This document shows positions 364 through 63,765 of a DNA stretch of 64,000 nucleotides, one piece after another. Under the pieces are notes generated by a model that was not told where the DNA came from, ran no database searches, and saw nothing but the letters and a program-made list of their open reading frames with translations. Position numbers and translations under genes: made by a program. Origin of the DNA: an uncultured bacterium (GTDB lineage Bacteria; Patescibacteriota; Minisyncoccia; Phycocordibacterales; CAIZLB01); NCBI GenBank assembly GCA_903848795.1, contig CAINHC010000021.1:11309-75308 (forward strand), in the 5' to 3' direction. Positions within the stretch are counted from its first letter, which is position 1; each line of letters starts with the position of its first letter.

Positions 364-1515
364 GTGGATTTAACATTGATAATACTGTATGATTTGCCCA
401 TAATGTTATATAGAACCAAATCACCAGTTAAAAAGTCAAAGCAACCCGTGTTAGAAGCACCAAAGAGACCCTCACCGGCTGAAGACTTACCTATTTTACT
501 TAAATTTACCTTAATTCCAGGCCTTAAGTCTATTGTACTAGATGAAATATCAAAATACAGTGAATTAAAGATTACTGAGGCTGGAGAAGATAAAGTTTAT
601 CTTGATTTTATTCCTGATTTCAAAAATATTTTGGCAATGCGAAGTATTACAAACGCTTACATCACAAAGCGTGGTGCAAAATTTAATCCATATTTTATAT
701 GCAATCACAAATCTATTATCGGTGATTTGATTAAAATTGTAATCGGGGAAACAAAAAATATTTTTAAAAGTTTCAAACTACGATGTGCAGGATCTGATTC
801 TAAAGAGGTAAAGGAAATTCAAAGTTATATAGTTAGTACATTCAAACTTAGAGAATCCGAGGATGCAGATTTGGAAATTTATATTAGTAAGCCAAGCGAG
901 CTCTGGGAAATTAGCGTTAGACTCACTCCAAGACCGCTATCTCTCCGAAGTTATAGAGTTGCAAATATTAAAGGAGGACTTAATCCAACTGTTGCCTATG
1001 CGATGAATACTTATCTGGATTTAAGCGGGGAAAAATGCGGGGAAAAATCATATCTCAATGTCTTTTCTGGAAGTGGAACACTCTTAATTGAAGCGGGACT
1101 CTCTAATCCAAACCTTAAGCTTATTGGCTTTGACATAGACGGTAAAAGTAATGCTCTAGCAATACAAAATATTAAAAAAGCCGGTCTTATTAAACAGATT
1201 CATCTGAAGACGGCAGATATTTACGATAAACCACATCTTGGAAAATTTGACATGATTGTGTCGGACCTACCATTTGGTATGCAAATTTCAAGCAAAGAAA
1301 ATTTGGACAATTTATATCAGAAATTTGTCACATATTGCGAAGAGACATTAAATGAAAATGGCGGACTTGTCGCCTATACTACAGAATATAGAATATTAGA
1401 AAACGCCCTAATATCGTCCAAATTTGAAATAATCAAAACCACTGATTTGGTAATTTCAACCGCAGTCGTCAATACATATCTGTATCCGAGAATTTTTGTT
1501 TGCAAACTTAAGTAG
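364..1515 (+). CDS. THUMP-domain RNA (guanine-N2) methyltransferase (Trm14/RlmL-like)
   Basis: SAM motif I VFSGSGTLLIEAG and motif IV DLPFG (D/N-PP-F/Y class), with an N-terminal THUMP-like region. Confidence 0.6.
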   Translation: MDLTLIILYDLPIMLYRTKSPVKKSKQPVLEAPKRPSPAEDLPILLKFTLIPGLKSIVLDEISKYSELKITEAGEDKVYLDFIPDFKNILAMRSITNAYITKRGAKFNPYFICNHKSIIGDLIKIVIGETKNIFKSFKLRCAGSDSKEVKEIQSYIVSTFKLRESEDADLEIYISKPSELWEISVRLTPRPLSLRSYRVANIKGGLNPTVAYAMNTYLDLSGEKCGEKSYLNVFSGSGTLLIEAGLSNPNLKLIGFDIDGKSNALAIQNIKKAGLIKQIHLKTADIYDKPHLGKFDMIVSDLPFGMQISSKENLDNLYQKFVTYCEETLNENGGLVAYTTEYRILENALISSKFEIIKTTDLVISTAVVNTYLYPRIFVCKLK

Positions 1516-1562
1516 CAAAAAATATAGACACAGCTCGCACGCGTGTTTTGGCGCGATCAATT

Positions 1563-2348
1563 TTAGAGAAGCTCTTTAATTATTTCTTTCGTTTGCTCTT
1601 TTCCAGAAACATTAACGCAATCAACCCCATCCTCCTTTACAGAATAATCATTTCCGTTTGGAACAACTTCATCACCGATAAATAGCATTCTCTCCAGTGG
1701 TATATTTAGAAAATCACGAAGCTTGTTTACACCGTATGCTTTATTCACTCCTTTAATTGTAACATCAACTGATGTTAAACCACCCATGGAAACATCAAAA
1801 AGAGGGATTTTATCCTTTAAAATATTAACAATAGCTTGACGCTTACTTTTATCTGGATCCCACGCCTTCTTTAGTTCAAGTGGTGCTTGTTGACCAAGGG
1901 CTGAGAAGGTTATTTGCGACTCCCGATCTTCTACTCTCTCGCCAAAAACATGTTCTGGCAAAATAAACCCAGTCTCAACCCAAGCCTCCTCAATACACTT
2001 AATGATATTCTTCCTATCCTCAGGGGAAATATTTTCAGAATAGCCTTCATGCCACCCTGCAGAAAGTTCTGCACTATTTTTTTCAATTCCTCTATCTTTC
2101 CATGCGTACATTCTCGTTCCTGTTGTTGGTAGCAAGAATAAATTTTTAAGCAACTCAGTACTTGCCGGCAAATTACTTAGAAACTGTTTTTCAAATTGAA
2201 TAAACATTCCTCCAGAAATAACTGCTACTTTTCTCTTTTTCAAAAGTTCAATAATCAAATCTGCCATATCATTATCAAGTGGAGACTTGCTATCAGCGAG
2301 AGTTCCATCGAGATCGAATATGATAAGTTCTTTTTCTTGGTAGTTCAT
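1563..2348 (-). CDS. Phosphomannomutase, eukaryotic-type (HAD-IIB, PMM family)
   Basis: LIIFDLDGTLADSKSPL...KVAVISGG...FIGDEVVPNGNDYSV aligns with PMM1/2 (LCLFDVDGTLT...IGVVGGSD...FFGDKTMPGGNDHEI). Confidence 0.65.
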   Translation of the reverse strand: MNYQEKELIIFDLDGTLADSKSPLDNDMADLIIELLKKRKVAVISGGMFIQFEKQFLSNLPASTELLKNLFLLPTTGTRMYAWKDRGIEKNSAELSAGWHEGYSENISPEDRKNIIKCIEEAWVETGFILPEHVFGERVEDRESQITFSALGQQAPLELKKAWDPDKSKRQAIVNILKDKIPLFDVSMGGLTSVDVTIKGVNKAYGVNKLRDFLNIPLERMLFIGDEVVPNGNDYSVKEDGVDCVNVSGKEQTKEIIKELL

Positions 2349-2407
2349 GTTGTTTTGTTAATTTGATTTTTTGTTAATTTTTTTTGATTCGCTTTGGGTA
2401 TTTTAAT

Positions 2408-4315
2408 CTATAATCTTAATTTGTTTAATAAATCTTCTAATTTAATTGTAGCAACTCCCGTCACACTATCACCTGCTCCATAATATATATAGGCTCGGTC
2501 TTCTCTCATAACCAAACTACATGGAAATACCACCTTAGGAACTAATCCATTCACCTCATAAGGTGCCTCTGGTTCAAAAATCGGAGCAGCAGTCTTTGCT
2601 TTTACAACTGTTGGGTTTTCTAGGTCAAGTAAAAGCGCACCGACTCTATATGTCTTATTTTTGGAAATTCCGTGGTACAAAATCAGCCAGCCTTCAGCGG
2701 TTTTGAGTGGTGGACCAGCGATACCAATTTTAACACCATCCCACATACCAGGTTCGGGGTTTAGTATATCTATACACTTTGTAATTTTTTCTTTTGTAAA
2801 ATCAAGAGTTTCGACAAAGTCAGCACAAATACTATTATCAACTCTATGAATTATCATGTACTTTCCGTGTATCTTTTCTGGGAAAATAACTGCGTCTTTG
2901 ATGGGAATATTTGGCGGGGTAATTACATTTGGCATTGACCATTGTTCCCATTTTCTAGCAAGAAAATCATCGACGGAAATTGAACTCACTGCAACTCTTG
3001 GAGTTATGCCGTTATAGGCAGTGTAAGTCATGTATATAATATCTCCAATTCTAATTAAACGTGGGTCTTCACATCCATAATTATTATTTGCTCCATCATC
3101 TCTTTTTTCAAAATCAGCACGAGGAGTATATATTGGCATTTTTGGACGCTCATCGATTTTTAGTCCATCCTTACTATACGCATACCCCAGGACAGAAACA
3201 TTTCCAGCAGAGGCCGCACGATAGATAATGTGAGTCTCGCCATTCAAGTTAATCACCGCAGGATTTATTGTACCACCAGCTTCCCATGCCACCCCATCAC
3301 GAGGAGAAAGTATTGGGTTGCCTGCAAATCTCTTGAATTTATGCTCAAGCATTGAGTCAGTCATTAGACTCAATAAGTTTTCTAAATTAACAAAAGCAAC
3401 AGCGCAATGTGTATCAGCTCCCCCGTAATATATTTCCAATCGACCGCCCTTAACTAGAGTTCCTGTTGGAAATATAATATTGGAAACATGACCAGTCTTT
3501 TCGTAATACGTACTTGGAACCATAAATGGACCATTTGTCCTTCCAATAATTCTTCTTGGATTTTCCAAATCAAGTAATACTGCTTCAACTCCAAATATTG
3601 GATTCTGAGTTGAATAGTCTTGAATGTGGGAATATATAACAAGCCAGCCCTTTTCTGTCTTAAGTGGCGGGGTTCCCATCTCAACCTGATCACTATCTTT
3701 TCTTCGTAGATTTATTTTATGCTGGTCTCCTTCCTTCAGCCAATCATGCCATTTTTGGTCATTCCACAGATCTTCAGGCTTATCAAATTCTACATAACAA
3801 ATATCAGCTGGCCATTTGTCAGTGTTAATCGTGACGAGTCCTGCGATTTTGCCATTTATTTTCTCTGAGAACAAAGCCATTGCCTTTGCATTAAAAGGTG
3901 TAACTAAATGTTTCTCTTTAACAGTATTCAAATCATCACTTAAAGCGACTGCCACTTTTATATTATCAGCTGAGAAAGGATAGCCACCGAGCGCGGTGTA
4001 GAATGTATAATATACGCCATCAATTTTTGTTATTCTTGGATCTTCACACCCATATTTGTCATAGTCTTCACTTGGGCCAAAAAATTGTCTACGATTTTCA
4101 AAATTAATTCCATCTATCGATTCGGCAATACCAATAACAGAAGTACTTATGTGAGGCTCCATCAAATGATCTGGTTCAGACATCGCTCTATAAACAATGT
4201 GAGTCTTTTCACCTGAGACAATCGGACAACCATTAAAAGAAGAGTGGGCTTCCCATGGATGTTCCTGAATGGGTGAAAGTATTGGATTATGTTCTAGTCT
4301 ATTTAGTGTAAACAT
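2408..4315 (-). CDS. Tandem double-domain GH130 (beta-mannoside phosphorylase/hydrolase family) protein
   Basis: Two ~300-aa halves, each with the GH130 GCEDPR motif followed by a YxTYTA block (GCEDPRITKIDGVYYTFYTA and GCEDPRLIRIGDIIYMTYTAYNG). Confidence 0.7.
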   Translation of the reverse strand: MFTLNRLEHNPILSPIQEHPWEAHSSFNGCPIVSGEKTHIVYRAMSEPDHLMEPHISTSVIGIAESIDGINFENRRQFFGPSEDYDKYGCEDPRITKIDGVYYTFYTALGGYPFSADNIKVAVALSDDLNTVKEKHLVTPFNAKAMALFSEKINGKIAGLVTINTDKWPADICYVEFDKPEDLWNDQKWHDWLKEGDQHKINLRRKDSDQVEMGTPPLKTEKGWLVIYSHIQDYSTQNPIFGVEAVLLDLENPRRIIGRTNGPFMVPSTYYEKTGHVSNIIFPTGTLVKGGRLEIYYGGADTHCAVAFVNLENLLSLMTDSMLEHKFKRFAGNPILSPRDGVAWEAGGTINPAVINLNGETHIIYRAASAGNVSVLGYAYSKDGLKIDERPKMPIYTPRADFEKRDDGANNNYGCEDPRLIRIGDIIYMTYTAYNGITPRVAVSSISVDDFLARKWEQWSMPNVITPPNIPIKDAVIFPEKIHGKYMIIHRVDNSICADFVETLDFTKEKITKCIDILNPEPGMWDGVKIGIAGPPLKTAEGWLILYHGISKNKTYRVGALLLDLENPTVVKAKTAAPIFEPEAPYEVNGLVPKVVFPCSLVMREDRAYIYYGAGDSVTGVATIKLEDLLNKLRL

Positions 4316-4380
4316 TTGATTTTTATTTTTCGAAATTTTTATATTTTAACTTTTGGATTCTGACACAATTTTTAAAAATA

Positions 4381-5517
4381 TTAATTGGTTTTGCCATATT
4401 TTTTAAGCCAAGCTAATAAAGGCTTTAATGGGGTCTTGGCAACACAAACAGTTTTGTCTCCCCCACCATAATAAACATACAAATCATCATCCAAAACCAA
4501 AGCTCCAGAGGCATATACAACTCCAGGCTTTCCATCATTTTCATAGTGTGCATCAGGCTCAAGTATTGGATAAATAGATCTGTAAAGAATAACACTTGGA
4601 TCCTTCAAGTCTAGTATCATACATCCAACCTTGTATTTGTTAGGATCCTTTTTATCCATCGCATGATAAAGCAAGAGCCAGCCTAACTTTGTCTTCACTG
4701 GAGGAGAGCCAGCTCCTCGCATCCAATTATCCCATTTATCTTCTCGTCCGCCAGATGGAGCCTTACTCTTTATAAATTCATCGCTCTTAATATAATTAAT
4801 ATCATCAACGTAACTTATTTGTACCTTTGGAGAGACACTGTGAAGTATTGCCATCTTTCCATTTATTTTTTCTGGAAATAAAACCCAATTTTTATTTACC
4901 TCGGTGATAGAGGAAATAAACTTCGGCTTTTTCCAATTCCATTTTCCAGCTTTTAAATCTTCCATTGAAATGGAAGTGAGAGCTATTCTAACCGACTGCC
5001 ATCCTTCAAAAGCGGTGTAAGTCATGTAAACTCTTCCATCCATCACAATGGCACGAGGATCCTCACATCCTCCCCAACTACCGCCAGAACTGTAAATATC
5101 TGTATCGTAATATTTTGGACCGCTAACAACATCTCTTTCTCCGGACTCTTTCAAAATATCATATGAAGGCGGAGTACAAAAAACATAAACAGGATATGGA
5201 GTTTTTGTTGGAAAATTTACTCCATCCATACTTTTTGCATGACCTATACGAGATATACCATCGTCACCTATTGCTCTGTAGAATAGGTGGACAAAACCCT
5301 CATCGTCCTTTATAGCAGCTGGATTAAAAGTTCCGACAGTTTCCCATCCACTATATGGCTTTGGTTGAATTATTGGATTGTTTTCATATCTAATCAAAGC
5401 GAAACGATCTGGTACAACTCTCTTTTTATAAAGATTGACTAGGTGTTTGATGAAATAAACAACACAAACTACCAACCCAACTGATAGAGTAATTAAGATT
5501 AATAAGTTTAAGGTCAT
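4381..5517 (-). CDS. Membrane-anchored single-domain GH130 family protein
   Basis: N-terminal TM helix, then GGCEDPRAIVMDGRVYMTYTAFEGW. Its start overlaps the stop of the upstream cupin gene by 1 nt, consistent with an operon. Confidence 0.7.
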   Translation of the reverse strand: MTLNLLILITLSVGLVVCVVYFIKHLVNLYKKRVVPDRFALIRYENNPIIQPKPYSGWETVGTFNPAAIKDDEGFVHLFYRAIGDDGISRIGHAKSMDGVNFPTKTPYPVYVFCTPPSYDILKESGERDVVSGPKYYDTDIYSSGGSWGGCEDPRAIVMDGRVYMTYTAFEGWQSVRIALTSISMEDLKAGKWNWKKPKFISSITEVNKNWVLFPEKINGKMAILHSVSPKVQISYVDDINYIKSDEFIKSKAPSGGREDKWDNWMRGAGSPPVKTKLGWLLLYHAMDKKDPNKYKVGCMILDLKDPSVILYRSIYPILEPDAHYENDGKPGVVYASGALVLDDDLYVYYGGGDKTVCVAKTPLKPLLAWLKKYGKTN

Positions 5518-5885
5518 TATTTTATTTGACTAGGTCTGTTATATTTATCTTCGACACGGACAATATCATTTTCATTAAAATTGCCGTACGCTATTTCTAA
5601 TAAAACCACATCTTCACTTCCCGCCTCTATTCTATGCAAACTCTTGCGAGGTACAAAGTAATCTTCTCCAGCTACGACATCTTTTCTTGCACCTCCAACT
5701 GTTGCGACACCATTACCAGAAATTATTCTCCAAAACTCATCTCTATCGTCGTGATATTGCAAACTAAAGGCCTGGCCTTTCTCAACTGTAATTATTTTTA
5801 CAGTACAAGGCTGGTTTTTTACAAATTCTACAAAATTACCCCATGGTCTGCTTTCTTGATACGGTTTTGAAGGGTTTTGTTCCAT
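5517..5885 (-). CDS. Cupin-domain protein, mannose-6-phosphate isomerase type II C-terminal-like
   Basis: Cupin_2 core GQAFSLQYHDDRDEFWRIISGNGVATVGG, co-transcribed upstream of the GH130 genes. Confidence 0.55.
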   Translation of the reverse strand: MEQNPSKPYQESRPWGNFVEFVKNQPCTVKIITVEKGQAFSLQYHDDRDEFWRIISGNGVATVGGARKDVVAGEDYFVPRKSLHRIEAGSEDVVLLEIAYGNFNENDIVRVEDKYNRPSQIK

Positions 5886-6196
5886 AGTGTTAGATAAAAA
5901 TTGTGTTAAATTTATGGATTAATTATAGCACACCACCCTGCACTCGAGGTCAAAAGTTATCCACTTATTTGAGTCTTATTTGAATGGGTTGGCTAACCTC
6001 ATTTATCTTAATTTTCTTTAACAGTACACTCTTTCAAATATTTATCAGCGGATTCTGCATTCATGATTTTTATACTCTTTTGGTATCCAAAGTACTCCAT
6101 AATTAGTTTCTGTTCCTCTGTCACATCTCATGTGAATACGTCTATCGCAGTTTTTGGGGATTTCTATTATAGCTTTGTAGTTCATGTTTTTTCAGC

Positions 6197-7420
6197 CTAT
6201 ATGGATTTAATATTGAAGTAACTCGATGAATTCACCGGTGCGGTATTATCTGTTTTGTTTTTAAAATACAAAGCATATCCATCAGCCTGATGGATATTAG
6301 CAGGAACCTTAAATGTTATATTCTTTGTCTTTGAATCAACAAAACCAAGAAATACAGAGCTATAGTTTTCCGTTAGTGAAGGTGTTATTTTATTTAATTC
6401 ATTATACAAGAAAACATTATAGTCTGCAGATGGCAAATCATAATTACTCCAGGTCATGTTATAAGTTTGTCCAGGTCGCAGTACAGCAAAAGGTCCCATC
6501 GAAAATTTAATCGAAACAACATCCGTTGATGAGGCTGTGGTAGAAGTTGCATTAGTTCCAGATGACGGAGCTGGTGGAACAACATTCACTGGATTAGTTG
6601 TAGCTGGTCCAGCCTTTATCTCAAAATCTCTTGACGATGACACCGGAACATTATTATCAGACTTGTTTTTAAAGTACAAGCCATAATCAGTATTGGGATG
6701 CATATTAGCAGGAATCTTAAATACAAGATTCTTTGTTTTTGCATCAACGTACCCTAGGAATACAGAGCTATAGTTTTCCGTTAGTGAAGGTTTTATTTCA
6801 TTAGATGGACTATATAAGAAAATATTATAATTTGCAGAAGGTGCGTCGTAATTACTCCAAGTTACACTATAAGTCTGTCCTGCCAGTAGTACCTTGGGTA
6901 ACTTTGAATATGTAAGTGGTATAGCGTCTGTTAATGAAGCGGTGGATATTGATGCAGAATCTGTAGATCCGGCTGATGGCGCCTGTAGGAAGACAACATT
7001 TGTGGGAGTGGAAGTCGGAGTAGTTGTTCCAGCTAATGAATAGTTTGTTGAGGTAGCTACCGGACCAGTTGTTGCCTCAGCGCAATCAATTTGCTTAATC
7101 TTCGCTCTTGTTAATGAACCAACATATCCAGTTGGAGAAATATTATTATCCTTCTGGAAAGCCTTAACAGCAATAAGGGTCGCACGGCCAAAGAATCCGG
7201 TTGGTTGCGCAGTTAAATAATTTTTAGTATTTAAAAAATCTTGCAAAATAGAAATGTCAGTAGCCCCACTTGAATCTCTAGTTCCATATTTAAGATTATT
7301 ATTAATGATCGCACAAGCCTGAGAGCCTGTTGGATCAACGTCGCTCTGCTGTGCAAATATTAATGAAGGAGTTAATAAAAGCACCAACACCAAAACACTA
7401 TACAAAATACTTTTTTTCAT
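6197..7420 (-). CDS. Secreted protein with N-terminal peptidoglycan-binding (PG_binding_1) domain and two internal ~95-aa tandem repeats
   Basis: Signal peptide; PG-binding motif ILQDFLNTKNYL...GFFGRATLIAVKAFQ...GYVG; two repeats sharing ...TWSNYD.PSA.YN.FLY...PSLTENYSSVFLG.VD.KTKN..FK.PAN... Confidence 0.6.
   Translation of the reverse strand: MKKSILYSVLVLVLLLTPSLIFAQQSDVDPTGSQACAIINNNLKYGTRDSSGATDISILQDFLNTKNYLTAQPTGFFGRATLIAVKAFQKDNNISPTGYVGSLTRAKIKQIDCAEATTGPVATSTNYSLAGTTTPTSTPTNVVFLQAPSAGSTDSASISTASLTDAIPLTYSKLPKVLLAGQTYSVTWSNYDAPSANYNIFLYSPSNEIKPSLTENYSSVFLGYVDAKTKNLVFKIPANMHPNTDYGLYFKNKSDNNVPVSSSRDFEIKAGPATTNPVNVVPPAPSSGTNATSTTASSTDVVSIKFSMGPFAVLRPGQTYNMTWSNYDLPSADYNVFLYNELNKITPSLTENYSSVFLGFVDSKTKNITFKVPANIHQADGYALYFKNKTDNTAPVNSSSYFNIKSI
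6215..6905. repeat. Intragenic tandem duplication, two ~290-nt copies at ~80% nucleotide identity
   Basis: Near-identical 45-nt stretches share a common core (...atcaac...aatacagagctatagttttccgttagtgaagg...) at 6345-6390 and 6746-6790; they encode the two protein repeats. Confidence 0.7.
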
Positions 7421-7448: not shown

Positions 7449-8036
7449 TTAATTATACAACACCATCTCCGTTATTTCCAACATCTCTCCATCTGACCCC
7501 TTAAATCTTTCATCAAAGGTCTTTTTACCAGTTTCAACAAAACCTTGTTTTTTATAAAAGCCCACCCCTCGGGAGTTAAGGGAAAATACATCTAAATACG
7601 TATCTTTGTTTTTATCCAACAAACCGTGTGCTTTATCATACAATTCTTTAGCAAGCCCTTGACCCTTGAATTCTGGCATGACATACAAAGCCTCTATTGT
7701 ATTTTTATCTTCATGTTTTTCAGCAAAACAACATCCGACAACTTTTTCTTCATCTTTCCCATCGTTGTCATTAGTCATTTTTGCGACCATAAGAATATTA
7801 TCATCCGTAAAATTAGCAATGCCTTTTTCCAACCCCTCGGCTGCCTTTTGTGCTTTTTCTGGAGGAAAATGATTATTTATCTCCTCCTCCGACCAACCGC
7901 AAAGTTTGTACATCCCTTTGGATGATTCAATTGTTAATGATTGGATACCATAGGCGTCGGAAGGGATAGCTTTTGATATTTTGACGTTGTTCATTTTATA
8001 TCTATTTATTAAGCGCATTCCTTGTTGCTGGACCAA
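7449..8036 (-). CDS. GNAT-family N-acetyltransferase
   Basis: Acetyl-CoA-binding region VMPEFKGQGLAKELYDKA...RGVGFYKKQGFVETG. The start overlaps the upstream gene, so the true start is probably an internal Met. Confidence 0.6.
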   Translation of the reverse strand: MVQQQGMRLINRYKMNNVKISKAIPSDAYGIQSLTIESSKGMYKLCGWSEEEINNHFPPEKAQKAAEGLEKGIANFTDDNILMVAKMTNDNDGKDEEKVVGCCFAEKHEDKNTIEALYVMPEFKGQGLAKELYDKAHGLLDKNKDTYLDVFSLNSRGVGFYKKQGFVETGKKTFDERFKGSDGEMLEITEMVLYN

Positions 8037-9255
8037 GCGCTCCTGTTTGTGTAAGCTTCTTCGCCTTTTGGAATTTCTTTACTGCGGTTTCAGTAAGTGG
8101 ACCAAACTTTCCATTAATAGGGCCGGTATAAAAATCTAGCTTCTTAAGTGTAGTTTGCAACTCAGTAACTTCCTTGCCAGTTGAACCACTCTTAATTGAA
8201 GTTGAGAATTTATATTTGGTTGCAGATACGGTTGTATTGGATGATTCCACTGATGTATTAACTACGGGATTTGCGACAACAGTGTTAGGAGTAGAAACTA
8301 CAGCAGGTGTGGGTACAGGAGTTGAAACCTGAGAAATATTATTTTGATCTAAAATTAAACTCATCTGTGCCGTTCTTCCATTAAAGTCATTCAACGCCAA
8401 AACTACTGGAATTGTTGATCCTTCATTCCCTGTCACAATATAACTTGAAGTATAAGGACTACTACCAGAAACACCAATTCTCTTTCCAGCAAAAGAAGCC
8501 CACGCAGTATTCACTTGATTTGGCTGATTTGCGCTGAAGCTAAGGGAGATGGTCGAACCAGGACTTAAAAAATTTCCGTTGACATTACTTGATGAAAGAG
8601 TAAATGACGAGAATGATATAGCGGGACTGTTGTTTGTATTTGTTTGATTAACTGCACCTGTATTAACAACTACAATTACTAAGTTTGAACACTGACCATC
8701 ACTTTCACAAACATTAAGAGTTGCACCACCAAAAGCATTAGCGTAGATGTTAACATTATTTCCATTTATTGTTGCTGCTACCACACTACTATTTGAATTA
8801 CTTGCTATACCATAGCCCCCATTGCCATTAAGCCCAATTGATAGACTTTGACCAACATTAAGAGTTATATTGTTTTGACTGAAAATCGGATAACCATTTG
8901 TGGTTGTGTTCGTTGAACATGTACTATTACCACTTGCTGACCATGGAATCATCAGGGATTGCTGATTGTTTACAATGACGTACGCTGTTTGATTACAACC
9001 CGCGAGATTGTGCGTATTTGAACCAAAGGTCGTAGAAAAATTACCATTCTGATCTGTCGAACCAACGTAAGCAGACGATCCTCCAAAATGAAGATCGATG
9101 AGCGAGTTGGGATCTCCATAAACTGTTATCTTGCTCATTGTATTATCCACTGGGCTCAGGGACAATGTTGGAATAACGGATGCATTTGCCTTGGAAGCAA
9201 GCAAAAAAAGTATTCCAAAAAGTACCAATAATAAATTATTTTTAATAGTTTTCAT
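8002..9255 (-). CDS. Secreted Asn/Ser/Thr-rich surface protein with C-terminal peptidoglycan-binding domain
   Basis: Signal peptide MKTIKNNLLLVLFGILFLLASKANA; low-complexity N/S/T-rich body; C-terminal PG_binding_1 motif (TELQTTLKKLDFYTGPINGKFGPLTETAVKKFQ...TGALG). Confidence 0.55.
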   Translation of the reverse strand: MKTIKNNLLLVLFGILFLLASKANASVIPTLSLSPVDNTMSKITVYGDPNSLIDLHFGGSSAYVGSTDQNGNFSTTFGSNTHNLAGCNQTAYVIVNNQQSLMIPWSASGNSTCSTNTTTNGYPIFSQNNITLNVGQSLSIGLNGNGGYGIASNSNSSVVAATINGNNVNIYANAFGGATLNVCESDGQCSNLVIVVVNTGAVNQTNTNNSPAISFSSFTLSSSNVNGNFLSPGSTISLSFSANQPNQVNTAWASFAGKRIGVSGSSPYTSSYIVTGNEGSTIPVVLALNDFNGRTAQMSLILDQNNISQVSTPVPTPAVVSTPNTVVANPVVNTSVESSNTTVSATKYKFSTSIKSGSTGKEVTELQTTLKKLDFYTGPINGKFGPLTETAVKKFQKAKKLTQTGALGPATRNALNK

Positions 9256-12122: not shown

Positions 12123-13157
12123 TTATTCAGGTTGGCCCTCTGTAATCATCTTCTTTATTTCCTTATCAAAATCAGAATCAATTTTCTGATACTTATTAAA
12201 TTCTTTGTATTCAGAAATGGCTTTTTCGTCTGCATCTAGCTTGGAAATCTTCCCCTTACCATCCAAAACTTCATATTTATTGAATGTCAAAAATTGGTCA
12301 ACACTCTCTGCAAACTCTTTCATTGTAAAAGCATTACTTCTTTCTATTAGTCCCTCAATGTAATCAAAAAAGCCTGTAACTGTTCTTTCCAGTTTTTTAA
12401 TCTCACTTTCTTTTAAATAATTCTTTGCGATGGTAACATCAGATTGTAATACCCTACCTGTAGGAGATTTTTTCCAAGTTGTAAGACCCATATATGGCAA
12501 GGTTGCATCTGCCTTGTCATAAATTATTTCAGGTGCTGTTTTCCCAGTGATTGCAAAGTGAAATTTATTTTGAACCATAGCATAAAATTCATGACTCACA
12601 TCAGAATCTCTATCGTAATCGATACTACACTCGGCAAATATGTCTGTAATTTGTTGGTAAATTCGACGCTCGCTTGTCCTAATGGAGCGAACTCGTTCCA
12701 ACAATTCTCTAAAATAATCAACTCCGAATGTCTTCTCGCCCTGTTTCAAACGATCATCATCAAGCACGAACCCTTTTTTAATAAATTCACGAAGTACTTG
12801 GGTCGCCCAAATACGAAAATATGTGGCCTTTTTGGAGTTTATCCTATAACCTACGGCAATAATGACATCGAGGTTGTAATGTACAATTTCTCTGGAAACC
12901 TCTCTATTAGCCTCATTTTGAACTATTAGGAATTTCCTAATAGTTGCCAATTCCGATAATTCTTGAGATGAATAAATGTTCTTAAGGTGTTCATGTATTG
13001 TAGGGATAGAAACATCAAAAAGCTCTGCGATAAGCTTTTGAGTTAACCAAATTGTTTCCCCTTCTATTCTGACCTCAATTTTAGGCATCCCCGCCTCATT
13101 GCCAAACATGAGAAATTGAGCAATTTTATTATTTTTAGTGACATGATTTTCTTTCAT
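12123..13157 (-). CDS. RhuM-family protein (virulence protein RhuM-like), paralogue 1
   Basis: Family signature YNLDVIIAVGYRINSKKATYFRIWATQVLREFI...TSERRIYQQITDIF; HTH-like N-terminus. Confidence 0.7.
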   Translation of the reverse strand: MKENHVTKNNKIAQFLMFGNEAGMPKIEVRIEGETIWLTQKLIAELFDVSIPTIHEHLKNIYSSQELSELATIRKFLIVQNEANREVSREIVHYNLDVIIAVGYRINSKKATYFRIWATQVLREFIKKGFVLDDDRLKQGEKTFGVDYFRELLERVRSIRTSERRIYQQITDIFAECSIDYDRDSDVSHEFYAMVQNKFHFAITGKTAPEIIYDKADATLPYMGLTTWKKSPTGRVLQSDVTIAKNYLKESEIKKLERTVTGFFDYIEGLIERSNAFTMKEFAESVDQFLTFNKYEVLDGKGKISKLDADEKAISEYKEFNKYQKIDSDFDKEIKKMITEGQPE

Positions 13158-13506: not shown

Positions 13507-13878
13507 CTATTTTGTAACGCAATTCTTGTATGTCATATTATCCTGACTACCTTCTGTTACAAAAGCGGTATTTCCCTTATTCCAAAAAACTATCGATTCA
13601 TCATCGTTAGCGTAACGAGCGCCAGAGGCAGAAATTGTCTGAGGCAAGAATAATTCTGGACCACCACTTAGAGTTACGTAAGTTGCGCTTTTATAAAAGA
13701 TGGCGTGTATATTTTTGTTACCCTCGCACTGAAATACGACATCACTAACCTTATTCCCCAATACTTCTTGTACGCCAAGCTTTTTACCTAGAAAAATACC
13801 GAGTCCAAAAACTCCAACGAATAATATAATTGCCACGGTTTGTGAAAGCCGGGTGACTTTGTTCCATTTAATTTTCAT
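13507..13878 (-). CDS. MliC-like (membrane-bound lysozyme inhibitor of C-type lysozyme family) membrane-anchored protein
   Basis: N-terminal signal/anchor; two Cys (FQCEG ... YKNCV) bracketing SASGARYANDDESIVFWNKGNTAFV, matching the MliC SGSGAxY...FWxKG core. Confidence 0.5.
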   Translation of the reverse strand: MKIKWNKVTRLSQTVAIILFVGVFGLGIFLGKKLGVQEVLGNKVSDVVFQCEGNKNIHAIFYKSATYVTLSGGPELFLPQTISASGARYANDDESIVFWNKGNTAFVTEGSQDNMTYKNCVTK

Positions 13879-16106: not shown

Positions 16107-16856
16107 CTACAAAACCCTAAATACATAACCTTCTTTCTTCAATTTAGTTACTATTTCTTCTATTGCAACGTATGTGGCCGGCGCGTTCGGACCACCCAAA
16201 TGCATGATTATTACCGATTTATCATGAACTCCACTCAACACCGCTTTGACAATACCTTTCGAATTCTTATTAAAAGAATCTCCCGACGTTAGCCCAGCGT
16301 CAGAAACAGTTAATCCAATTTTTTGGGCCAATAGATCATCTTGTTGATTATGGCAAAGACCTGGATGGCGGAAATATTTTGGAACAACGCCCGTGAGTGC
16401 TGTAAGAATTCTTTGGGTCTTTTGCATTTCCTCAATTTTATCTTCATCTGTATTGATAATTTTTAACTTATAGCAGGGCGACTCAAAACCAGGGTGATCG
16501 TATGAGTGATTAGCAATTTCAATATCTGGATATTTAGCAATTTCCCTTATCAAATCTGGATATACCTCAGCGAACATTCCAGTAACAAAAATCGTGGAGG
16601 GAATCTTTTCACTTTCTAAATAATTAACAAGATCTTTACTATAATAATCAGAAACTTTTTTCTCATCCAACTTCTTTTTCATAAATGGTGTCATGTCGGC
16701 ATCGAATGTGAGATACACCACTTTTGATTTTGATACCTGAATTTCAGCCTTACTTTCAGCATCGCTTTCTACTTTTTTTGTATGTAAAATATAGAAGACG
16801 ATGCAAATCAAAATCGCCAGAATAACCGCAAAGATGATTTTTCTATTTCTAATCAT
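16107..16856 (-). CDS. Polysaccharide deacetylase (CE4, NodB homology domain), membrane-anchored
   Basis: N-terminal TM; TFDADMTP and NHSYDHP motifs. Confidence 0.65.
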   Translation of the reverse strand: MIRNRKIIFAVILAILICIVFYILHTKKVESDAESKAEIQVSKSKVVYLTFDADMTPFMKKKLDEKKVSDYYSKDLVNYLESEKIPSTIFVTGMFAEVYPDLIREIAKYPDIEIANHSYDHPGFESPCYKLKIINTDEDKIEEMQKTQRILTALTGVVPKYFRHPGLCHNQQDDLLAQKIGLTVSDAGLTSGDSFNKNSKGIVKAVLSGVHDKSVIIMHLGGPNAPATYVAIEEIVTKLKKEGYVFRVL

Positions 16857-16862
16857 ATTAAG

Positions 16863-17885
16863 CTATTTATCAGATACATTCTTAACTTTCTTCTCAATCC
16901 TCTTTTGAACACTCCTGATCGTCTCCAAATAGGCTTCTTCTACTGGTGAAAGAGTTTTTACTTGATACTTCTTGTATTCAGTCTTGGCTTTTTCTAATGC
17001 TTGTTCATGACTTACGTTTCCAGAATCTTTAAGTAAACCCTTCCCATAATTTTCAGTAAATTTATCAAGTTCACTGACCCAGTCCGCCATATACATCTTT
17101 GTATGTTCTTGTGCTTTGATTTCAGCAAGATCAAAGAAGGCTGACACTAAACGATTAAGTCTAAAAAGTTCTTCTTCCGTGAGATAGTTTTTTGCAATCC
17201 CAACTTCAGAAAATACAGGTTGTGCACCAGAAAATGTTGTTAATCCCATAAAGTCCTTTTCTGCATCAGCTCGTGAATGAATTGTTTCAGCAGCAGTGTG
17301 TTTATTGGTAGCATAATGCAATTTATTTTGCACCGTTTTAAAGAACTTAATTGACTCCTGACTGTGGGGATCGTAATCCATACTAGTTGAATACAAATCA
17401 AGCACTTGACGATAGAGCACCTTTTCGCTACTTCTGATATCACGAATACGTTCCAAAAGTTCTTTCCAATAGTTTCCGCCTCCAGTACCTTTGAGGCGTT
17501 CATCGTCCATAGTAAATCCCTTGATAATGTATTCACGAAGCCTGGCTGTTGCCCACTGTCTGAAACGCGTACCCTGTATAGAGCTTACACGATATCCAAC
17601 AGATATGATTACATCGAGGTTATAGTAATTTGTAGGCTTCGTAGAAAAATCGGAAATTCCAATTTTTCTTATAGTACCGTATTCTATGAGCTCTTTTTCC
17701 GAGTAAATATTAAGAATATGTTCATTTATCGTTGAACGACTTTTATTGAATAATTCTGCCATTTGATCAATAGTAAGCCACACCGTCTCATTTTCAAAAC
17801 GGACCTCAAACTTTGGCTGACCATTGTCGCCTTCGTAAATAACTATTTCATTGTTAGATTTGTTAAATTCCATATCTTTTATCAT
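16863..17885 (-). CDS. RhuM-family protein, paralogue 2
   Basis: YNLDVIISVGYRVSSIQGTRFRQWATARLREYI...SSEKVLYRQVLDLY; ~50% identity to paralogues 1 and 3. Confidence 0.7.
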   Translation of the reverse strand: MIKDMEFNKSNNEIVIYEGDNGQPKFEVRFENETVWLTIDQMAELFNKSRSTINEHILNIYSEKELIEYGTIRKIGISDFSTKPTNYYNLDVIISVGYRVSSIQGTRFRQWATARLREYIIKGFTMDDERLKGTGGGNYWKELLERIRDIRSSEKVLYRQVLDLYSTSMDYDPHSQESIKFFKTVQNKLHYATNKHTAAETIHSRADAEKDFMGLTTFSGAQPVFSEVGIAKNYLTEEELFRLNRLVSAFFDLAEIKAQEHTKMYMADWVSELDKFTENYGKGLLKDSGNVSHEQALEKAKTEYKKYQVKTLSPVEEAYLETIRSVQKRIEKKVKNVSDK

Positions 17886-18022: not shown

Positions 18023-19318
18023 TCAGAACCGTTTTGATGCTAGGTAAGAAAAAATAGCTGCAAGCAGACAAACAGCCCCGCCAAGTATAATAGGCATTCG
18101 TGCACCCATAGCGTCCGCAAGCCATCCAGAAAGTGGTCCGCCAACAGCACCCGATCCAGTTAAAAAGATTCCTTGAAGCGCCATCAATCGCCCGTGCATT
18201 TCTTGTTTTGATTCGACTTGAATCATTGTAGTTGTTGCTGTCATGTATAAAATACTAGACGCTCCCACAAGAAAAATAATTGGTATAGCTACTAAGACAC
18301 TAGGAGAAAGTGCGAGCATCAGCATGCTAATACCAAGCATTGTAGCACCAAAGATAATATGATTCATTTTAACTAATCCCCTACGAGCTACAACAAGGGC
18401 ACTTATGACAGCTCCGACACTAAAAACTGAATAAAGAAGTGTAAAGTTACCGATCGTACCATGAAGGCCCCTGGTTACAAACAATGGAAAAGTAGTGGTA
18501 AAATTGTATGCAATCGTTCCAATAAAAGCGAGCATGCCAAAGTTTATCGCCAATAATGGCATAGAAAAAATATATTTTATACCTTCACCTACTCTACCTT
18601 TTGTTTTAGTAATCTCTGACTTTCGATACAGTTCCGAAGGTCGCATCATCATAAGACAAATTAAAACTGCAATATAGGAAATAGCGTCAAAGGTAAAACA
18701 CCAACCAAAGCCCACCGTAATAATTAGAAGCCCCGCAATCGCTGGGCCTAATATTCGTGACAAATTAACATTTGTACTATAAAGCACCACTGCATTTGGA
18801 ATATCATGTTTAGGGACCATTTCGCTTAAGAAAGATAGGCGAAGTGGATTATCCAATGAAAGCACTATTCCTCCAACAAATGCTAATGCATATAATCCAA
18901 AGAGTGGCGGATGTGGCATAAAAGCCAAAACAGCAAGACCTACAGATTGTACCATCTCCAAACTCTGTGTCCAAATAAGCAGACGTCGCTTATCAAATTT
19001 ATCAGCAATAGATCCTGCCCACAATGAAAGAAATAGTATCGGGCCATACTGTAGAGCAGAAACTATTCCAACAGAAAGACCGCTTTCAGTAATTTTCAAA
19101 ACTAGCAAAGTAAGGGCGATTTTTGTTAGCCAATTACCAGTATTTGAAATAGTTTGTCCTATTGTGAATAACCTATAGTTGCGATTCCTGAGCGATATAA
19201 AAGTCTTCAAAAATGTTTCTTTGTATTTAGGTGGTGCAAATAGTTTTTGGTTCATATAAAAAAATGTCAAAAAAACAAGCCTCGAGATCTCCAAGTTATT
19301 CTGGATTATTCCCTTCAA
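18023..19318 (-). CDS. MFS-family transporter
   Basis: 12 predicted TM helices in MFS-typical 6+6 layout, with a characteristic loop (DKFDKRRLL). Confidence 0.6.
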   Translation of the reverse strand: MKGIIQNNLEISRLVFLTFFYMNQKLFAPPKYKETFLKTFISLRNRNYRLFTIGQTISNTGNWLTKIALTLLVLKITESGLSVGIVSALQYGPILFLSLWAGSIADKFDKRRLLIWTQSLEMVQSVGLAVLAFMPHPPLFGLYALAFVGGIVLSLDNPLRLSFLSEMVPKHDIPNAVVLYSTNVNLSRILGPAIAGLLIITVGFGWCFTFDAISYIAVLICLMMMRPSELYRKSEITKTKGRVGEGIKYIFSMPLLAINFGMLAFIGTIAYNFTTTFPLFVTRGLHGTIGNFTLLYSVFSVGAVISALVVARRGLVKMNHIIFGATMLGISMLMLALSPSVLVAIPIIFLVGASSILYMTATTTMIQVESKQEMHGRLMALQGIFLTGSGAVGGPLSGWLADAMGARMPIILGGAVCLLAAIFSYLASKRF

Positions 19319-20315
19319 TTATTTTCTTTACTTCACGGTCAAAATCAGAAATGTAATTTTTGTCCTGTTCTATGCGGTATTTTTCATATTCACCAAGCGC
19401 CAAGGATTCTGCAACCTCATGACTAATCTTACCAGCATTAGTCAATATTTCATACTCACTGAAATTAAGAAAGGCGTTGAGTTTTTCTATCCAATCCGAC
19501 ATTGTCATTGCTTTACCTCGAGATGCTTGCATTTCGGCGTAGTCTAAATACATATTACCAATACGATTTAGATGATCTAACTCATTTTTATTCAAATAAT
19601 TTTTTGCTATAGTCACGTCGCTTGGCATTATTTTACCCTGCGGATATTTACGCCACGAAGTCAAACCTAGTTTTTCCTTTTTACGGCTCACTCTTTCCGC
19701 AACAATTTCTGCCGCCGTTCTACCGGTAATAGCAAAGTGTAGTTTATTTTGCACTGTTGCAAAAAATTCCTTACTTTCAAACGACTTTGGAGAATAGTCA
19801 ATCGCTGTTGCGTATATGTCTGTAATTTTTTGATATATTCTACGTTCACTCGTACGAATATCTTGTATTTCTTCATAAAGCTCATCAAAATACCGTGCGC
19901 TAAAACGAGAGCCATATTTCATACGGTCACTATCCAATGCATAACCTTTTTGGATATAACTTTTCAAAACACCAGTTGCCCATCTTCTAAATTCTGAACC
20001 TCTTTCAGAATTAACCCTATAGCCAACAGCGATGACAAGCTCGAGGCTATAACAGACGACCTTACGAACAACCTCCCTTTTCCCCTCTTTTTGAACTACC
20101 GAGAATTCCTCGGTAGTTGCATTTTTATCAAGCTCGTTCTCATTATGTATGTTCTTAATATGAAGAGACACATTGTCTGTTGAACAATCAAATAATTCTG
20201 ATATTTTTCGTAAGGTTAGCCACATATTATTCACGTCATACAAGACCTCAATATTTACCCTACCATCTTGAGATTGATAAAACGCTATTTCATTGTCTTT
20301 TATCTTTTTTATCAT
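19296..20315 (-). CDS. RhuM-family protein, paralogue 3
   Basis: YSLELVIAVGYRVNSERGSEFRRWATGVLKSYI...TSERRIYQKITDIY. Confidence 0.7.
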   Translation of the reverse strand: MIKKIKDNEIAFYQSQDGRVNIEVLYDVNNMWLTLRKISELFDCSTDNVSLHIKNIHNENELDKNATTEEFSVVQKEGKREVVRKVVCYSLELVIAVGYRVNSERGSEFRRWATGVLKSYIQKGYALDSDRMKYGSRFSARYFDELYEEIQDIRTSERRIYQKITDIYATAIDYSPKSFESKEFFATVQNKLHFAITGRTAAEIVAERVSRKKEKLGLTSWRKYPQGKIMPSDVTIAKNYLNKNELDHLNRIGNMYLDYAEMQASRGKAMTMSDWIEKLNAFLNFSEYEILTNAGKISHEVAESLALGEYEKYRIEQDKNYISDFDREVKKIIEGNNPE

Positions 20316-25531: not shown

Positions 25532-26977
<1,446 letters not shown>

Positions 26978-62937: not shown

Positions 62938-63765
62938 TTACCTAAATAAAGGCGTATTTTTAATCAATTCAGGATCATGGTTCTCTAACCTCATCTTATG
63001 GCTATGTTTAACGGTTCTTAAATAACAAAGAGGTATAACATGATCACGTAAGCCAAACTTCTTGGACCTAGTAACAAAATCACTATCTTCATAGTTCCAC
63101 CCATTAAACGACTCATCATAACCACCAATTAGATCAAAGTATTTTTTAAACAGAAATATTCTGCCCCCAATTCCAAAATTATCAAAGAATTTTTCACTAT
63201 AAGTATAACCCATGCACGAACCAATAGACTTTGGTTTTTTATTTAAAACGTAATTTATAAAGTATGCAAAATCCTTCCCTGTAAAATTATCAGCGTCTAA
63301 GTTGCAGACAATATTTCCAGTTGCAAATCTGTGGGCCATGTTTTTTGCCTTACTTGCATGGAAGTATTTAGGCTCTCTTGTCTGGTAATATTTAAGAACT
63401 CCCGACTTTATGTATTCATCTAAATTACCCCTAACCCAGAATTCCAAATCGTCCTTAGAATTATAGTCCAGAAGAACAAACTCCACATTTGGATAATTAA
63501 TATTATTAAGGATGTTTTTCAGCAACGTCTTCTTAATATGCTCCGACCTGTTCATACAGGTGATACAAAAGGATATTTTGTATAACTTATCGACAGGCTT
63601 ATTTTTGAAATCCTCAGCAGATAGCCAACTCGAGAAGAAGACAAATTTGGTATAGCAAAACTTCGCAATTCCCCAGACCTTATCTTTTATCCAGACGGTA
63701 AATTTCCAAATAAAATTTTTCTTCCCTCGCCTTGATTCAATATTTGATAGTATTTTACTAAACAT
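62938..63765 (-). CDS. GT-A fold glycosyltransferase (family 2-like)
   Basis: ISFCITCMNRSEHIKKTL...VEFVLLDYNSKDD...NLDADNF (DxD). The likely true start is the internal Met near MNRSEH. Confidence 0.5.
   Translation of the reverse strand: MFSKILSNIESRRGKKNFIWKFTVWIKDKVWGIAKFCYTKFVFFSSWLSAEDFKNKPVDKLYKISFCITCMNRSEHIKKTLLKNILNNINYPNVEFVLLDYNSKDDLEFWVRGNLDEYIKSGVLKYYQTREPKYFHASKAKNMAHRFATGNIVCNLDADNFTGKDFAYFINYVLNKKPKSIGSCMGYTYSEKFFDNFGIGGRIFLFKKYFDLIGGYDESFNGWNYEDSDFVTRSKKFGLRDHVIPLCYLRTVKHSHKMRLENHDPELIKNTPLFR

Follow-up and report, generated by a model that had tools for sequence, protein, structure and literature searches.

Enzymes of glycoside hydrolase family GH130 have been published in two classes, cytoplasmic phosphorylases that carry a phosphate-binding Arg/His pair and secreted hydrolases that are without it (PMC7660257, PMC4599007). 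The phosphorylases work with a single catalytic proton-donor Asp together with a phosphate-binding Arg (R168 in UhgbMP) and His (H231), and a second pair of residues provides a predictive rule for the linkage, with Glu and Lys (E/K) marking the beta-1,2-specific members, GH130_3, GH130_4 and GH130_6, and Tyr and Arg (Y/R) the beta-1,4-specific ones (PMC7660257, PMC4599007). Here we analyse a GH130 gene cluster in a 64,000-nucleotide stretch of DNA from an uncultured member of the Patescibacteriota (contig CAINHC010000021.1 of assembly GCA_903848795.1; hereafter the window), where the list of open reading frames (ORFs) holds a minus-strand run of four co-directional genes at 1563-5885. This ~4.3-kb module encodes a cupin, a single-domain GH130 protein (here called G3), a tandem GH130-GH130 protein and a phosphohexomutase. 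With a probability of about 0.55, we read it as a cytoplasmic module of Paceibacteria (Patescibacteria, or candidate phyla radiation, CPR) that leads from beta-(1,2)-mannosides to mannose-1-phosphate (Man1P), mannose-6-phosphate (Man6P) and fructose-6-phosphate (Fru6P). To judge by their residues, the three GH130 domains are not equivalent, as their phosphate sites differ.

A preliminary description of this stretch had proposed three GH130 domains, a HAD-IIB mutase of the phosphomannomutase (PMM) family and a cupin resembling type II phosphomannose isomerase (PMI); the ORFs lie exactly where it placed them, and the profile hidden Markov models match. Pfam Glyco_hydro_130 (PF04041) matches the tandem protein (635 aa; 2408-4315, minus strand) in two stretches with an E-value of 4.5e-99 and 331.9 bits, and G3 (378 aa; 4381-5517, minus strand) with 4e-41 and 141.5 bits, against a cut-off of 26, and the PMM model is likewise matched above its cut-off (see below). 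Matches with E-values of this order, including those of the cupin and the mutase, are far beyond chance. The GCEDPR motif occurs three times, at residues 89-94 and 414-419 of the tandem protein and at 150-155 of G3. The two GCEDPR-bearing GH130 domains claimed for the 635-aa ORF are therefore present, and their catalytic residues, D92 and D417, are intact and invariant in 120 homologues.

Diagnostic residues were taken from the literature (PMC7660257, Table 2; PMC4599007; PMC12814180; PMC4264767) and read off HMMER and MAFFT alignments with Teth514_1788, Teth514_1789, Uhgb_MS and Lin0857 as mapping references, and conservation was counted over 120 homologues of the tandem protein and 120 of G3. 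Common to all three domains are the Asn and Asp of the -1 subsite, the +1 Arg, the proton-donor Asp of GCEDPR and an E/K pair. The proton donor and the -1 subsite residues (N28/D92/D301 in the N-terminal domain of the tandem protein, N351/D417/D616 in its C-terminal domain and N65/D153/D354 in G3) are kept in at least 118 of the 120 homologues, and the E/K pairs, at the positions of Y103/R150 of UhgbMP (E91/K144, E416/K473 and E152/K209), are all invariant. On this basis beta-1,2 linkage specificity is predicted for all three domains, which speaks against the beta-1,4-mannan or Man-GlcNAc linkage suggested earlier. The closest solved structures for every domain are Teth514_1788 (9FJ8) and Teth514_1789 (7FIP), followed by Lin0857 and Uhgb_MS. 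The AlphaFold model of the tandem protein, with a predicted local distance difference test (pLDDT) of 92.1 and a predicted template modelling score (pTM) of 0.85, shows two five-bladed propellers, and Foldseek against the PDB gave target-normalised TM scores of 0.88-0.90 to Teth514_1788 (9gph/9fj8). Membership of GH130 is firm on these sequence matches, with the exact substrates extrapolated.

The C-terminal domain of the tandem protein (residues 323-635; 2408-3349, minus strand) is the sole one of the three with the complete phosphate-binding Arg/His set, and it carries the full beta-1,2-mannoside phosphorylase signature: N351, R366, E416, D417, K473, H490-R491, K529, H548, Y556-R557 and D616 are invariant. 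Its best solved relative is Teth514_1788 (9fj8; E 6e-57), and the tandem protein contains no hydrophobic segment (maximum Kyte-Doolittle value 1.12). This domain looks like a true phosphorylase, an activity that we infer from its residues.

The N-terminal domain (residues 1-322; 3350-4315, minus strand), which we refer to as N-type, retains the sugar-binding residues and the proton donor, N28, R43, E91, D92, K144 and D301, and has a remodelled, acidic phosphate pocket. In it, Val or Leu followed by T162 replaces His-Arg, Q/H210 replaces the Arg or Lys equivalent to R242 of Uhgb_MS, S229-H230 stands for the His, which is shifted by one residue, and F241-G242 for Tyr-Arg. At the position of the phosphate Arg, 116 homologues have Thr and 4 have Ser. 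The domain has also gained E212 and E244, both invariant and located two positions along the same strands, and it contains an insertion of ~18 residues. The residues T/S162, Q/H210, E212, H230, F241, G242 and E244 are invariant or nearly so among the 120 homologues, which are 59-85% identical, and the conservation of the N-terminal domain, 0.786, compares with 0.771 for the C-terminal domain. Since the changes in this domain are fixed across its 120 homologues, the domain is conserved like the C-terminal one and the canonical Arg is never found in the 120 homologues of G3 (see below), we do not regard these differences as degeneration.

In the beta-1,2-mannosidase BT3780, Glu268 is one of two candidate catalytic bases, and the E268Q variant keeps 0.4% of the activity (PMC4599007). 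With the chain numbering of 5A7V anchored on N74 and D363 (chain index = native number + 4), the fragment match starts with D207 at chain position 267, and E212 maps to Glu268 by these alignment coordinates; the BT3780 equivalents in the N-terminal domain are N74, R89, E141, D142, K199, E268 and D363. As the phosphate Arg and His are replaced and a Glu stands at the position of Glu268, the N-terminal domain is most likely hydrolase-like, with hydrolase activity suggested by the BT3780-like pocket. Among solved structures, the domain is close to the Teth514 enzymes (E 2e-46) and much less so to GH130_3 of the BT3780 type (E 2.5e-15), and it scores 98.6 bits against the NF058598 cut-off of 550. 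Because it is Teth514-like and not GH130_3-like, a phosphorylase pocket would have been converted to an acidic one independently. In an exhaustive search of representatives with the N-terminal domain, N-type domains always accompanied a phosphorylase-type (GP-type) domain, either fused or adjacent.

The phosphate site of G3 departs from the canonical one in a different manner. Its best solved relatives are 9fj8 (2.2e-48) and then 7fip, and N65, R81, E152, D153, K209, H285, Y295 and D354 are invariant in its 120 homologues. H226-S227 is found in place of His-Arg, R267, H285 and Y295-K296 are retained, and the position of the canonical phosphate Arg is occupied by Ser (77 homologues), Gly (26), Ala (10), Thr (5) or Asn (2), never by Arg. 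G257-R258, within a GGR motif, is invariant, and R258 is a candidate relocated phosphate Arg that might compensate together with H285 and R267. The AlphaFold model of G3 has a pLDDT of 86.4, with low confidence in an insertion at residues 110-148. That all of the GH130 domains phosphorolyse, as the preliminary description had it, agrees with the C-terminal domain and its full phosphate set, but not with the hydrolase-like N-terminal domain, and it sits uneasily with G3, which is without the canonical phosphate Arg.

The transmembrane anchor previously noted at the N-terminus of G3 is supported by a hydrophobic helix at residues 5-23 (5449-5505, minus strand), with a Kyte-Doolittle 19-residue mean of 2.93, and by an AlphaFold helix at 3-31 with pLDDT values of 90-97. 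No basic residue lies ahead of the helix, and the stretch KHLVNLYKKR follows it. The helix is found in 104 of the 120 homologues, the other 16 being truncated sequences or non-transmembrane fusion proteins of ~626 aa. Lys and Arg residues average 0.24 before the helix versus 4.5 in the 15 residues after it, and outnumber those before it in 103 of the 104. By the positive-inside rule, the basic flank of a transmembrane helix lies on the cytoplasmic side. From this rule and the Lys/Arg bias, G3 would be an N-out/C-in reverse signal anchor with its propeller at the cytoplasmic membrane face, and the membrane-anchored protein most likely faces the cytoplasm. The same bias contradicts the surface exposure that had been proposed for it, and phosphorolysis needs intracellular inorganic phosphate (Pi). 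A Sec signal peptide was considered for this helix and rejected, as there is no positive n-region or cleavage motif, the hydrophobic run spans ~20 residues and the basic residues come after it. The cupin, the tandem protein and the mutase contain no hydrophobic segment (maximum Kyte-Doolittle values of 1.12 or less).

The mutase (261 aa; 1563-2348, minus strand) matches Pfam Hydrolase_3 (4e-12) and the eukaryotic PMM family PF03332 (1.9e-9; 38.1 bits against a cut-off of 22.4), the latter over residues 136-261 only, as well as the HAD-IIB model TIGR01484 (66.4 bits against a cut-off of 41.8; E 3.6e-18). Its best solved relative, matched over the full length, is the atypical alpha-phosphoglucomutase of L. 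lactis (4BND; E 1.8e-39), whereas eukaryotic PMMs align with E-values of 5e-10 to 1e-8; the earlier label of a eukaryotic-type PMM thus stands as far as the PF03332 and HAD-IIB matches go, but the enzyme is far closer to the lactococcal one. HAD motifs I-IV and the cap (FDxDxTL, SG, EDR, SxLGQxAP, K203 and GD...GND) are conserved in 47 orthologues, and the cap motif EDR...SxLGQxAP is common to the mutase and 4BND. By these matches the mutase is a PgmH/PMM-family phosphohexomutase, and its mannose specificity, the interconversion of Man1P and Man6P, is suggested by the conserved mannose-gene context only. That it is a housekeeping alpha-phosphoglucomutase adjacent by chance was rejected as the leading explanation, as it accompanies GH130 genes in several fusion architectures.

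The cupin (122 aa; 5517-5885, minus strand) matches PF01050 (MannoseP_isomer; 2.6e-17, 63.5 bits against a cut-off of 23.6) and Cupin_2, and it aligns with TIGR01479 (GMP_PMI) at model positions 360-467 only, the last ~108, with 60.4 bits against 372.95. The type II PMI cupin domain is thereby covered in its entirety. Across 52 orthologues, conservation is 90% or more for the motifs RPWG, SLQxHxxRxExW, HR, LE and GxFxExDIxRxxDxYxR. No close relative was found among solved structures, the best match being oxalate decarboxylase (4.5e-4). The protein is predicted to be a stand-alone member of the type II PMI C-terminal-domain family that interconverts Man6P and Fru6P.

In a scan of one genome per GTDB species, at least 595 genomes encoded the tandem protein; most of them carry a Paceibacteria/Parcubacteria label, and they include Taylor-, Nomura-, Zambryski-, Adler-, Campbell-, Moranii-, Vogel- and Wolfebacteria. 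Its architecture had been regarded as unusual, which does not hold given this distribution and the listing of GH130-GH130 proteins in CAZy (PMC7660257). More than 120 full-length cluster representatives, with 59-85% identity, come from metagenome-assembled genomes (MAGs) of Patescibacteria or Paceibacterota, and the database names of these homologues are mostly "hypothetical protein" or "GH43/DUF377". In all 74 loci with sufficient flanking sequence, the G3 gene is the immediate upstream neighbour of the tandem gene and has the same orientation (median gap 52 nt). Among 49 well-flanked loci the cupin is present in 36 and the mutase in 35, with both in 32 and neither in 10, and the order of the four genes is kept in 4 of 4 distant MAGs whose flanks are unrelated.

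The three types of GH130 domain also occur in other combinations. The N-type signature was found in N-GP tandems, in stand-alone proteins of ~325 aa, one of them directly after a GP-type GH130, and in a triple fusion. This last protein (P0241; L086 6001-8916, Logan SRR23086387) is a 971-aa G3-N-GP fusion in which the domain order equals the gene order of the window cluster, and its gene overlaps the end of a gene for a ManC-like guanylyltransferase, in a cluster of GT2, epimerase and sugar-dehydrogenase genes; the protein is a singleton, seen on one contig, and may reflect a misassembly or frameshift. A fusion of the transmembrane helix, G3 and a GP-type domain, followed by a mutase gene, was also found. 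An expanded cluster in a Parcubacteria MAG (L089 4823-12244) encodes the mutase, the cupin, a 627-aa protein with a degenerate propeller and a G3-type domain but no transmembrane helix, a 348-aa GH130 whose non-phosphorylase signature is different again, a cytoplasmic GH125 and an N-GP tandem; GH125 is a family of exo-alpha-1,6-mannosidases. Nine proteins of ~626 aa (P0204, P0214, P0223, P0227, P0229, P0231, P0233, P0236 and P0237) have an N-terminal domain of ~280 residues instead of the transmembrane helix, and their G3-type domain is 56-61% identical to G3. The ~280-residue domain aligns weakly with GH130, lacks all catalytic residues and may be a pseudo-propeller partner. Since the fusion pattern varies among the N-type, G3-type and GP-type domains, they appear to form one functional unit, and the mutase travels with it.

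In the catabolic module that we favour, the C-terminal domain would phosphorolyse beta-mannosides from the non-reducing end to alpha-mannose-1-phosphate, and the N-terminal domain would bind a beta-mannoside in its -1/+1 subsites and hydrolyse or trim it rather than phosphorolyse it, for example at a bond or aglycone that the phosphorylase cannot take. G3, with its altered phosphate pocket, would be held at the inner membrane face by the reverse signal anchor, the PgmH/PMM-family mutase would interconvert Man1P and Man6P, and the type-II-PMI-like cupin would interconvert Man6P and Fru6P. The route from Man1P over Man6P to Fru6P is biochemically coherent and is reinforced by the synteny across fusion architectures. 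The analysis shows the families, the residue signatures with their conservation, the predicted topology and the synteny; from these we infer every substrate, a hydrolytic N-terminal domain, a mutase specific for mannose phosphates and the way in which the flux runs. A catabolic direction is favoured because of the hydrolase-like domain, the GH125 variant and the cellular Pi.

Several observations weigh against this catabolic module. The substrate specificity is extrapolated, because each GH130 domain is far below the NCBIfam equivalog cut-offs: for NF052550 (beta-1,2-mannobiose phosphorylase equivalog, cut-off 450 bits) the N-terminal domain scores 195.1, the C-terminal domain 247.6 and G3 200 bits, none of which reaches it, and the whole tandem protein, at 437.8 bits the sum of its two domains, is still below it. 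The correspondence of E212 with Glu268 of BT3780 comes from the start and end coordinates of the alignment and not from a displayed alignment, and an equivalent of Glu227 was not located in the N-terminal domain by this coordinate mapping. With R258, G3 may still work as a phosphorylase, and the nearest characterised relative of the mutase, 4BND, which we take to be PgmH, acts on glucose phosphates. Clustering of the neighbours in 80 related loci revealed no recurrent transporter, binding protein, kinase or ManC, and hence no uptake system that could import a mannoside. One relative, the triple fusion, has biosynthetic ManC/GT2 surroundings. In nature, beta-1,2-mannans are rare, with no source known even for Thermoanaerobacter (Chiku 2014, PMC4264767).

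Among the alternatives, an endogenous beta-1,2-mannan ('mannogen-like') reserve or phosphate-buffer cycle survives best, although we consider it unlikely. The cupin and the mutase would make Man1P from Fru6P, one or more of the GH130 domains (G3 at the membrane, or the C-terminal domain in reverse) would polymerise it, and the phosphorylase and hydrolase-like domains would mobilise the polymer. A cycle of this kind would account for a self-contained module with no transporter in the 80 neighbourhoods and with all enzymes cytoplasmic by topology prediction, for its retention in at least 595 reduced genomes and for the scarcity of environmental beta-1,2-mannan. GH130 beta-1,2 phosphorylases are reversible, form long beta-1,2-oligomannan in vitro and have weak GDP-mannose transferase activity (PMC4264767, PMC12814180), and in Leishmania a cycle of this type is run by GT108 enzymes, which have the GH130 fold and originate from bacteria (PMC10913872). 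However, neither the window nor the conserved neighbourhood contains a ManC or GDP-mannose gene, the hydrolase-like domain and the GH125 alpha-mannosidase of one variant are degradative, the cellular Pi generally favours phosphorolysis and no polymer has been observed in these organisms.

In a more specific version of this cycle, which we find doubtful, three specialised GH130 paralogues would handle a membrane-associated intracellular beta-1,2-mannan pool in Paceibacteria. G3, with its opened phosphate pocket, would prime or elongate the chain, possibly with a phosphomonoester or nucleotide-sugar donor instead of Pi, the C-terminal domain would be the canonical phosphorylase, the N-terminal domain would trim in the cytoplasm, and the PMI and mutase would close the loop to Fru6P. 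If true, no storage-glycan cycle would have been reported from CPR bacteria before this one, which would be the bacterial equivalent, possibly an ancestor, of the mannogen cycle.

We also give little credence to a supply or salvage of GDP-mannose for envelope glycoconjugates on the Thermoanaerobacter model, in which Man1P, obtained by phosphorolysis or from Fru6P via the cupin and the mutase, would pass to a guanylyltransferase encoded elsewhere and on to cell-surface glycans, with G3 acting beside the membrane glycosylation machinery. The same role has been proposed for Teth514_1788/1789, encoded beside a Man1P guanylyltransferase and a GT4 (Chiku 2014, PMC4264767), the P0241 gene is directly downstream of a ManC-like gene in its GT2/epimerase/dehydrogenase cluster, and the window itself has a GT2 gene at 62938-63765. 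ManC, however, was found neither in the window nor in the 80 related neighbourhoods, P0241 is a single case, and a PMI-type cupin is unneeded for salvage, though useful for de novo supply.

Another improbable alternative concerns the N-terminal domain, which would be a non-catalytic partner of the C-terminal phosphorylase, either as a substrate-binding pseudo-enzyme or as an obligate dimer interface. The pTM of 0.85 implies a fixed arrangement of the two propellers, and N-type domains always co-occur with a phosphorylase-type one; GH130 enzymes work as dimers or hexamers, and Teth514_1788 and Uhgb_MS are dimers with mutually complementing loops (PMC12814180). Yet neither D92, the proton donor, nor any residue of the -1/+1 subsites varies, the domain equals the catalytic C-terminal one in conservation, and of its two new invariant Glu residues one is at the position of the BT3780 base, a pattern expected of catalysis and not of scaffolding. 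Finally, it is very unlikely that the module is a harvester with three GH130 phosphorylases, one of them displayed outside, for beta-1,4-mannan or N-glycan fragments: the hydrophobic helix of G3 and the GH130/PMM/PMI route established for N-glycan and mannan catabolism in Bacteroides (PMC4264767) would agree with it, but the positive-inside pattern puts G3 in the cytoplasm, its helix has no signal-peptide n-region or cleavage motif, the Man1P product of extracellular phosphorolysis would be lost, characterised GH130 phosphorylases are cytoplasmic and only hydrolases are secreted (PMC4599007), all three domains have the E/K (beta-1,2) and not the Y/R (beta-1,4) pair, and the canonical phosphate Arg is missing from two of the three.

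At the level of the DNA, the stop codon of the cupin gene shares one base with the start codon of G3 (TAATG at 5517), and gaps of 65 and 59 nt separate the other genes of the cluster. A methyltransferase gene, ending at 1515, converges on the cluster, and the 311-nt intergenic region upstream of the cupin holds an extended -10-like element, TGCTATAAT (5922-5930, minus strand), read by hand 36 nt ahead of the cupin start codon. This perfect extended -10, which has no recognisable -35, was missed by the consensus scan and is, as a lead only, a possible operon promoter. The scans of 1300-6400 were not above chance, with 22 promoter sites versus 18.7 expected from shuffled sequence and 5 terminators versus 3.0, and the Rfam scan of the window found a single tRNA only and none within the cluster. 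Each of the two GH130 proteins of the window is a single substitution away from its nearest database copy, which has R399P in the case of the tandem protein (P0001) and N47Y in that of G3 (P0121); N47 is the conserved state, and the window thus has the consensus residue at this position. The genes eno (25574-26977) and gpmI (27094-28740) are present ~20 kb from the cluster, as the preliminary description had stated, and the remaining window is an ordinary Patescibacteria chromosome with rpoB, rpoD, dnaG, pilus genes and peptidoglycan (PG)-binding surface proteins.

Directly upstream of the operon, two minus-strand genes at 6197-7420 and 8002-9255 encode proteins that each have an N-terminal hydrophobic stretch suggestive of export, a PG_binding_1 domain and Ser/Thr/Asn-rich repeats, the former having two Kre9/KNH-like Ig domains in addition; both are probably cell-surface proteins. 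A lipoprotein-like gene of the MliC (lysozyme inhibitor) family at 13507-13878 (minus strand) is unusual for so reduced a genome. Three RhuM-family (PF13310) paralogues are encoded within 8 kb on the minus strand (12123-13157, 16863-17885 and 19296-20315; E ~1e-102 to 1e-104), with a polysaccharide deacetylase gene (16107-16856) and a major facilitator superfamily transporter gene (18023-19318) among them, and a RhuM gene likewise lies a few kb from the GH130 cluster of a distant MAG (L005). In another locus (L003 9891-11465) a gene for a histidine kinase (HisKA/HATPase_c) has been inserted and separates the tandem GH130 gene from the mutase gene. An N_methyl pilin-like protein and a Peptidase_S11 D-Ala-D-Ala carboxypeptidase were each encoded in 19 of the 80 related loci (L009, L010 and others), downstream of the cluster in L003-L005, where their positions were examined; this recurrence is probably lineage synteny rather than function.

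No paper on this cluster came up in a literature search that combined GH130 with Patescibacteria, Parcubacteria, Paceibacteria or CPR. All the families are already known, GH130-GH130 proteins included. Three features did not appear in the literature searched: a cytoplasmic GH130 domain in whose phosphate pocket carboxylates have been substituted and which is obligately coupled to a phosphorylase domain, a GH130 that is tethered to the membrane, faces inward and lacks the canonical Arg, and a near-universal Paceibacteria operon that combines these GH130s with a PMI-like cupin and a PgmH-type mutase. The N-type domain fits neither of the published classes, secreted hydrolase or cytoplasmic phosphorylase, and together with G3 it offers a natural test case for how GH130 switches among phosphorolysis, hydrolysis and transfer. 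In Paceibacteria, whose genomes are very small, hardly any carbohydrate metabolism has been characterised, and the retention of the module in at least 595 species all the same implies an important, undescribed sugar flux. The identity of the substrate would tell scavenging of host glycans from a storage of their own, which bears on the livelihood of an episymbiont.

Compared with described systems, the mutase is, like PgmH (4BND) and PMM1/PMM2, a HAD-IIB protein with a DxDxT nucleophile motif and a PMM-type cap. The cupin shares RPWG, SLQxHxxRxExW and the Gln/His/Glu/His metal ligands with the type II PMI domain of ManC/AlgA/XanB, but unlike these bifunctional GMP/PMI enzymes it is without a guanylyltransferase domain. 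The succession of Man1P, Man6P and Fru6P without ATP is also that of the GH130 beta-1,4 routes of Bacteroides and other gut bacteria (BfMGP, UhgbMP/BT1033), although those enzymes have the Y/R (beta-1,4) pair and are encoded in polysaccharide utilisation loci with transporters and secreted hydrolases. The mannogen MTPs of Leishmania (GT108; 6Q4X-6Q50) share the five-bladed propeller (Foldseek E ~1e-10) at 14-18% identity, and the proteins analysed here are not members of GT108. The Leishmania system and, by prediction, the present one have paralogues with and without phosphorylase activity that cooperate on beta-1,2-mannan, and are cytoplasmic and linked to Man1P or GDP-mannose. The strict transferases of GT108 have a His for the phosphate Arg, whereas the N-terminal domain here has Thr/Ser and a Glu, and, unlike in Leishmania, there is no GDP-mannose gene in the cluster and no polymer known in Paceibacteria.

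The N-terminal domain is like BT3780/BACOVA_03624 (GH130_3; 5A7V, 3QC2) in being without the basic phosphate residues and in having Glu212 at the position of Glu268; unlike those secreted enzymes, the tandem protein has no signal peptide, is predicted to be cytoplasmic and is fused to a phosphorylase. The closest system is that of Teth514_1788/1789 (X-514; 9FJ8, 7FIP), which match all three domains best in sequence and in fold (E 6e-57 to 2e-46). The identity is ~36%, two domains are fused here, the N-terminal domain and G3 are without the canonical phosphate Arg, and the Teth514 genes lie with an ABC transporter, GH5, ManC and GT4, whereas the PMI-like cupin and the HAD mutase take their place in the present cluster. 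The two systems have in common the catalytic Asp, the Asn and Asp of the -1 subsite, the E/K pair and a cytoplasmic location, and the C-terminal domain has every phosphate-binding residue of the Teth514 enzymes.

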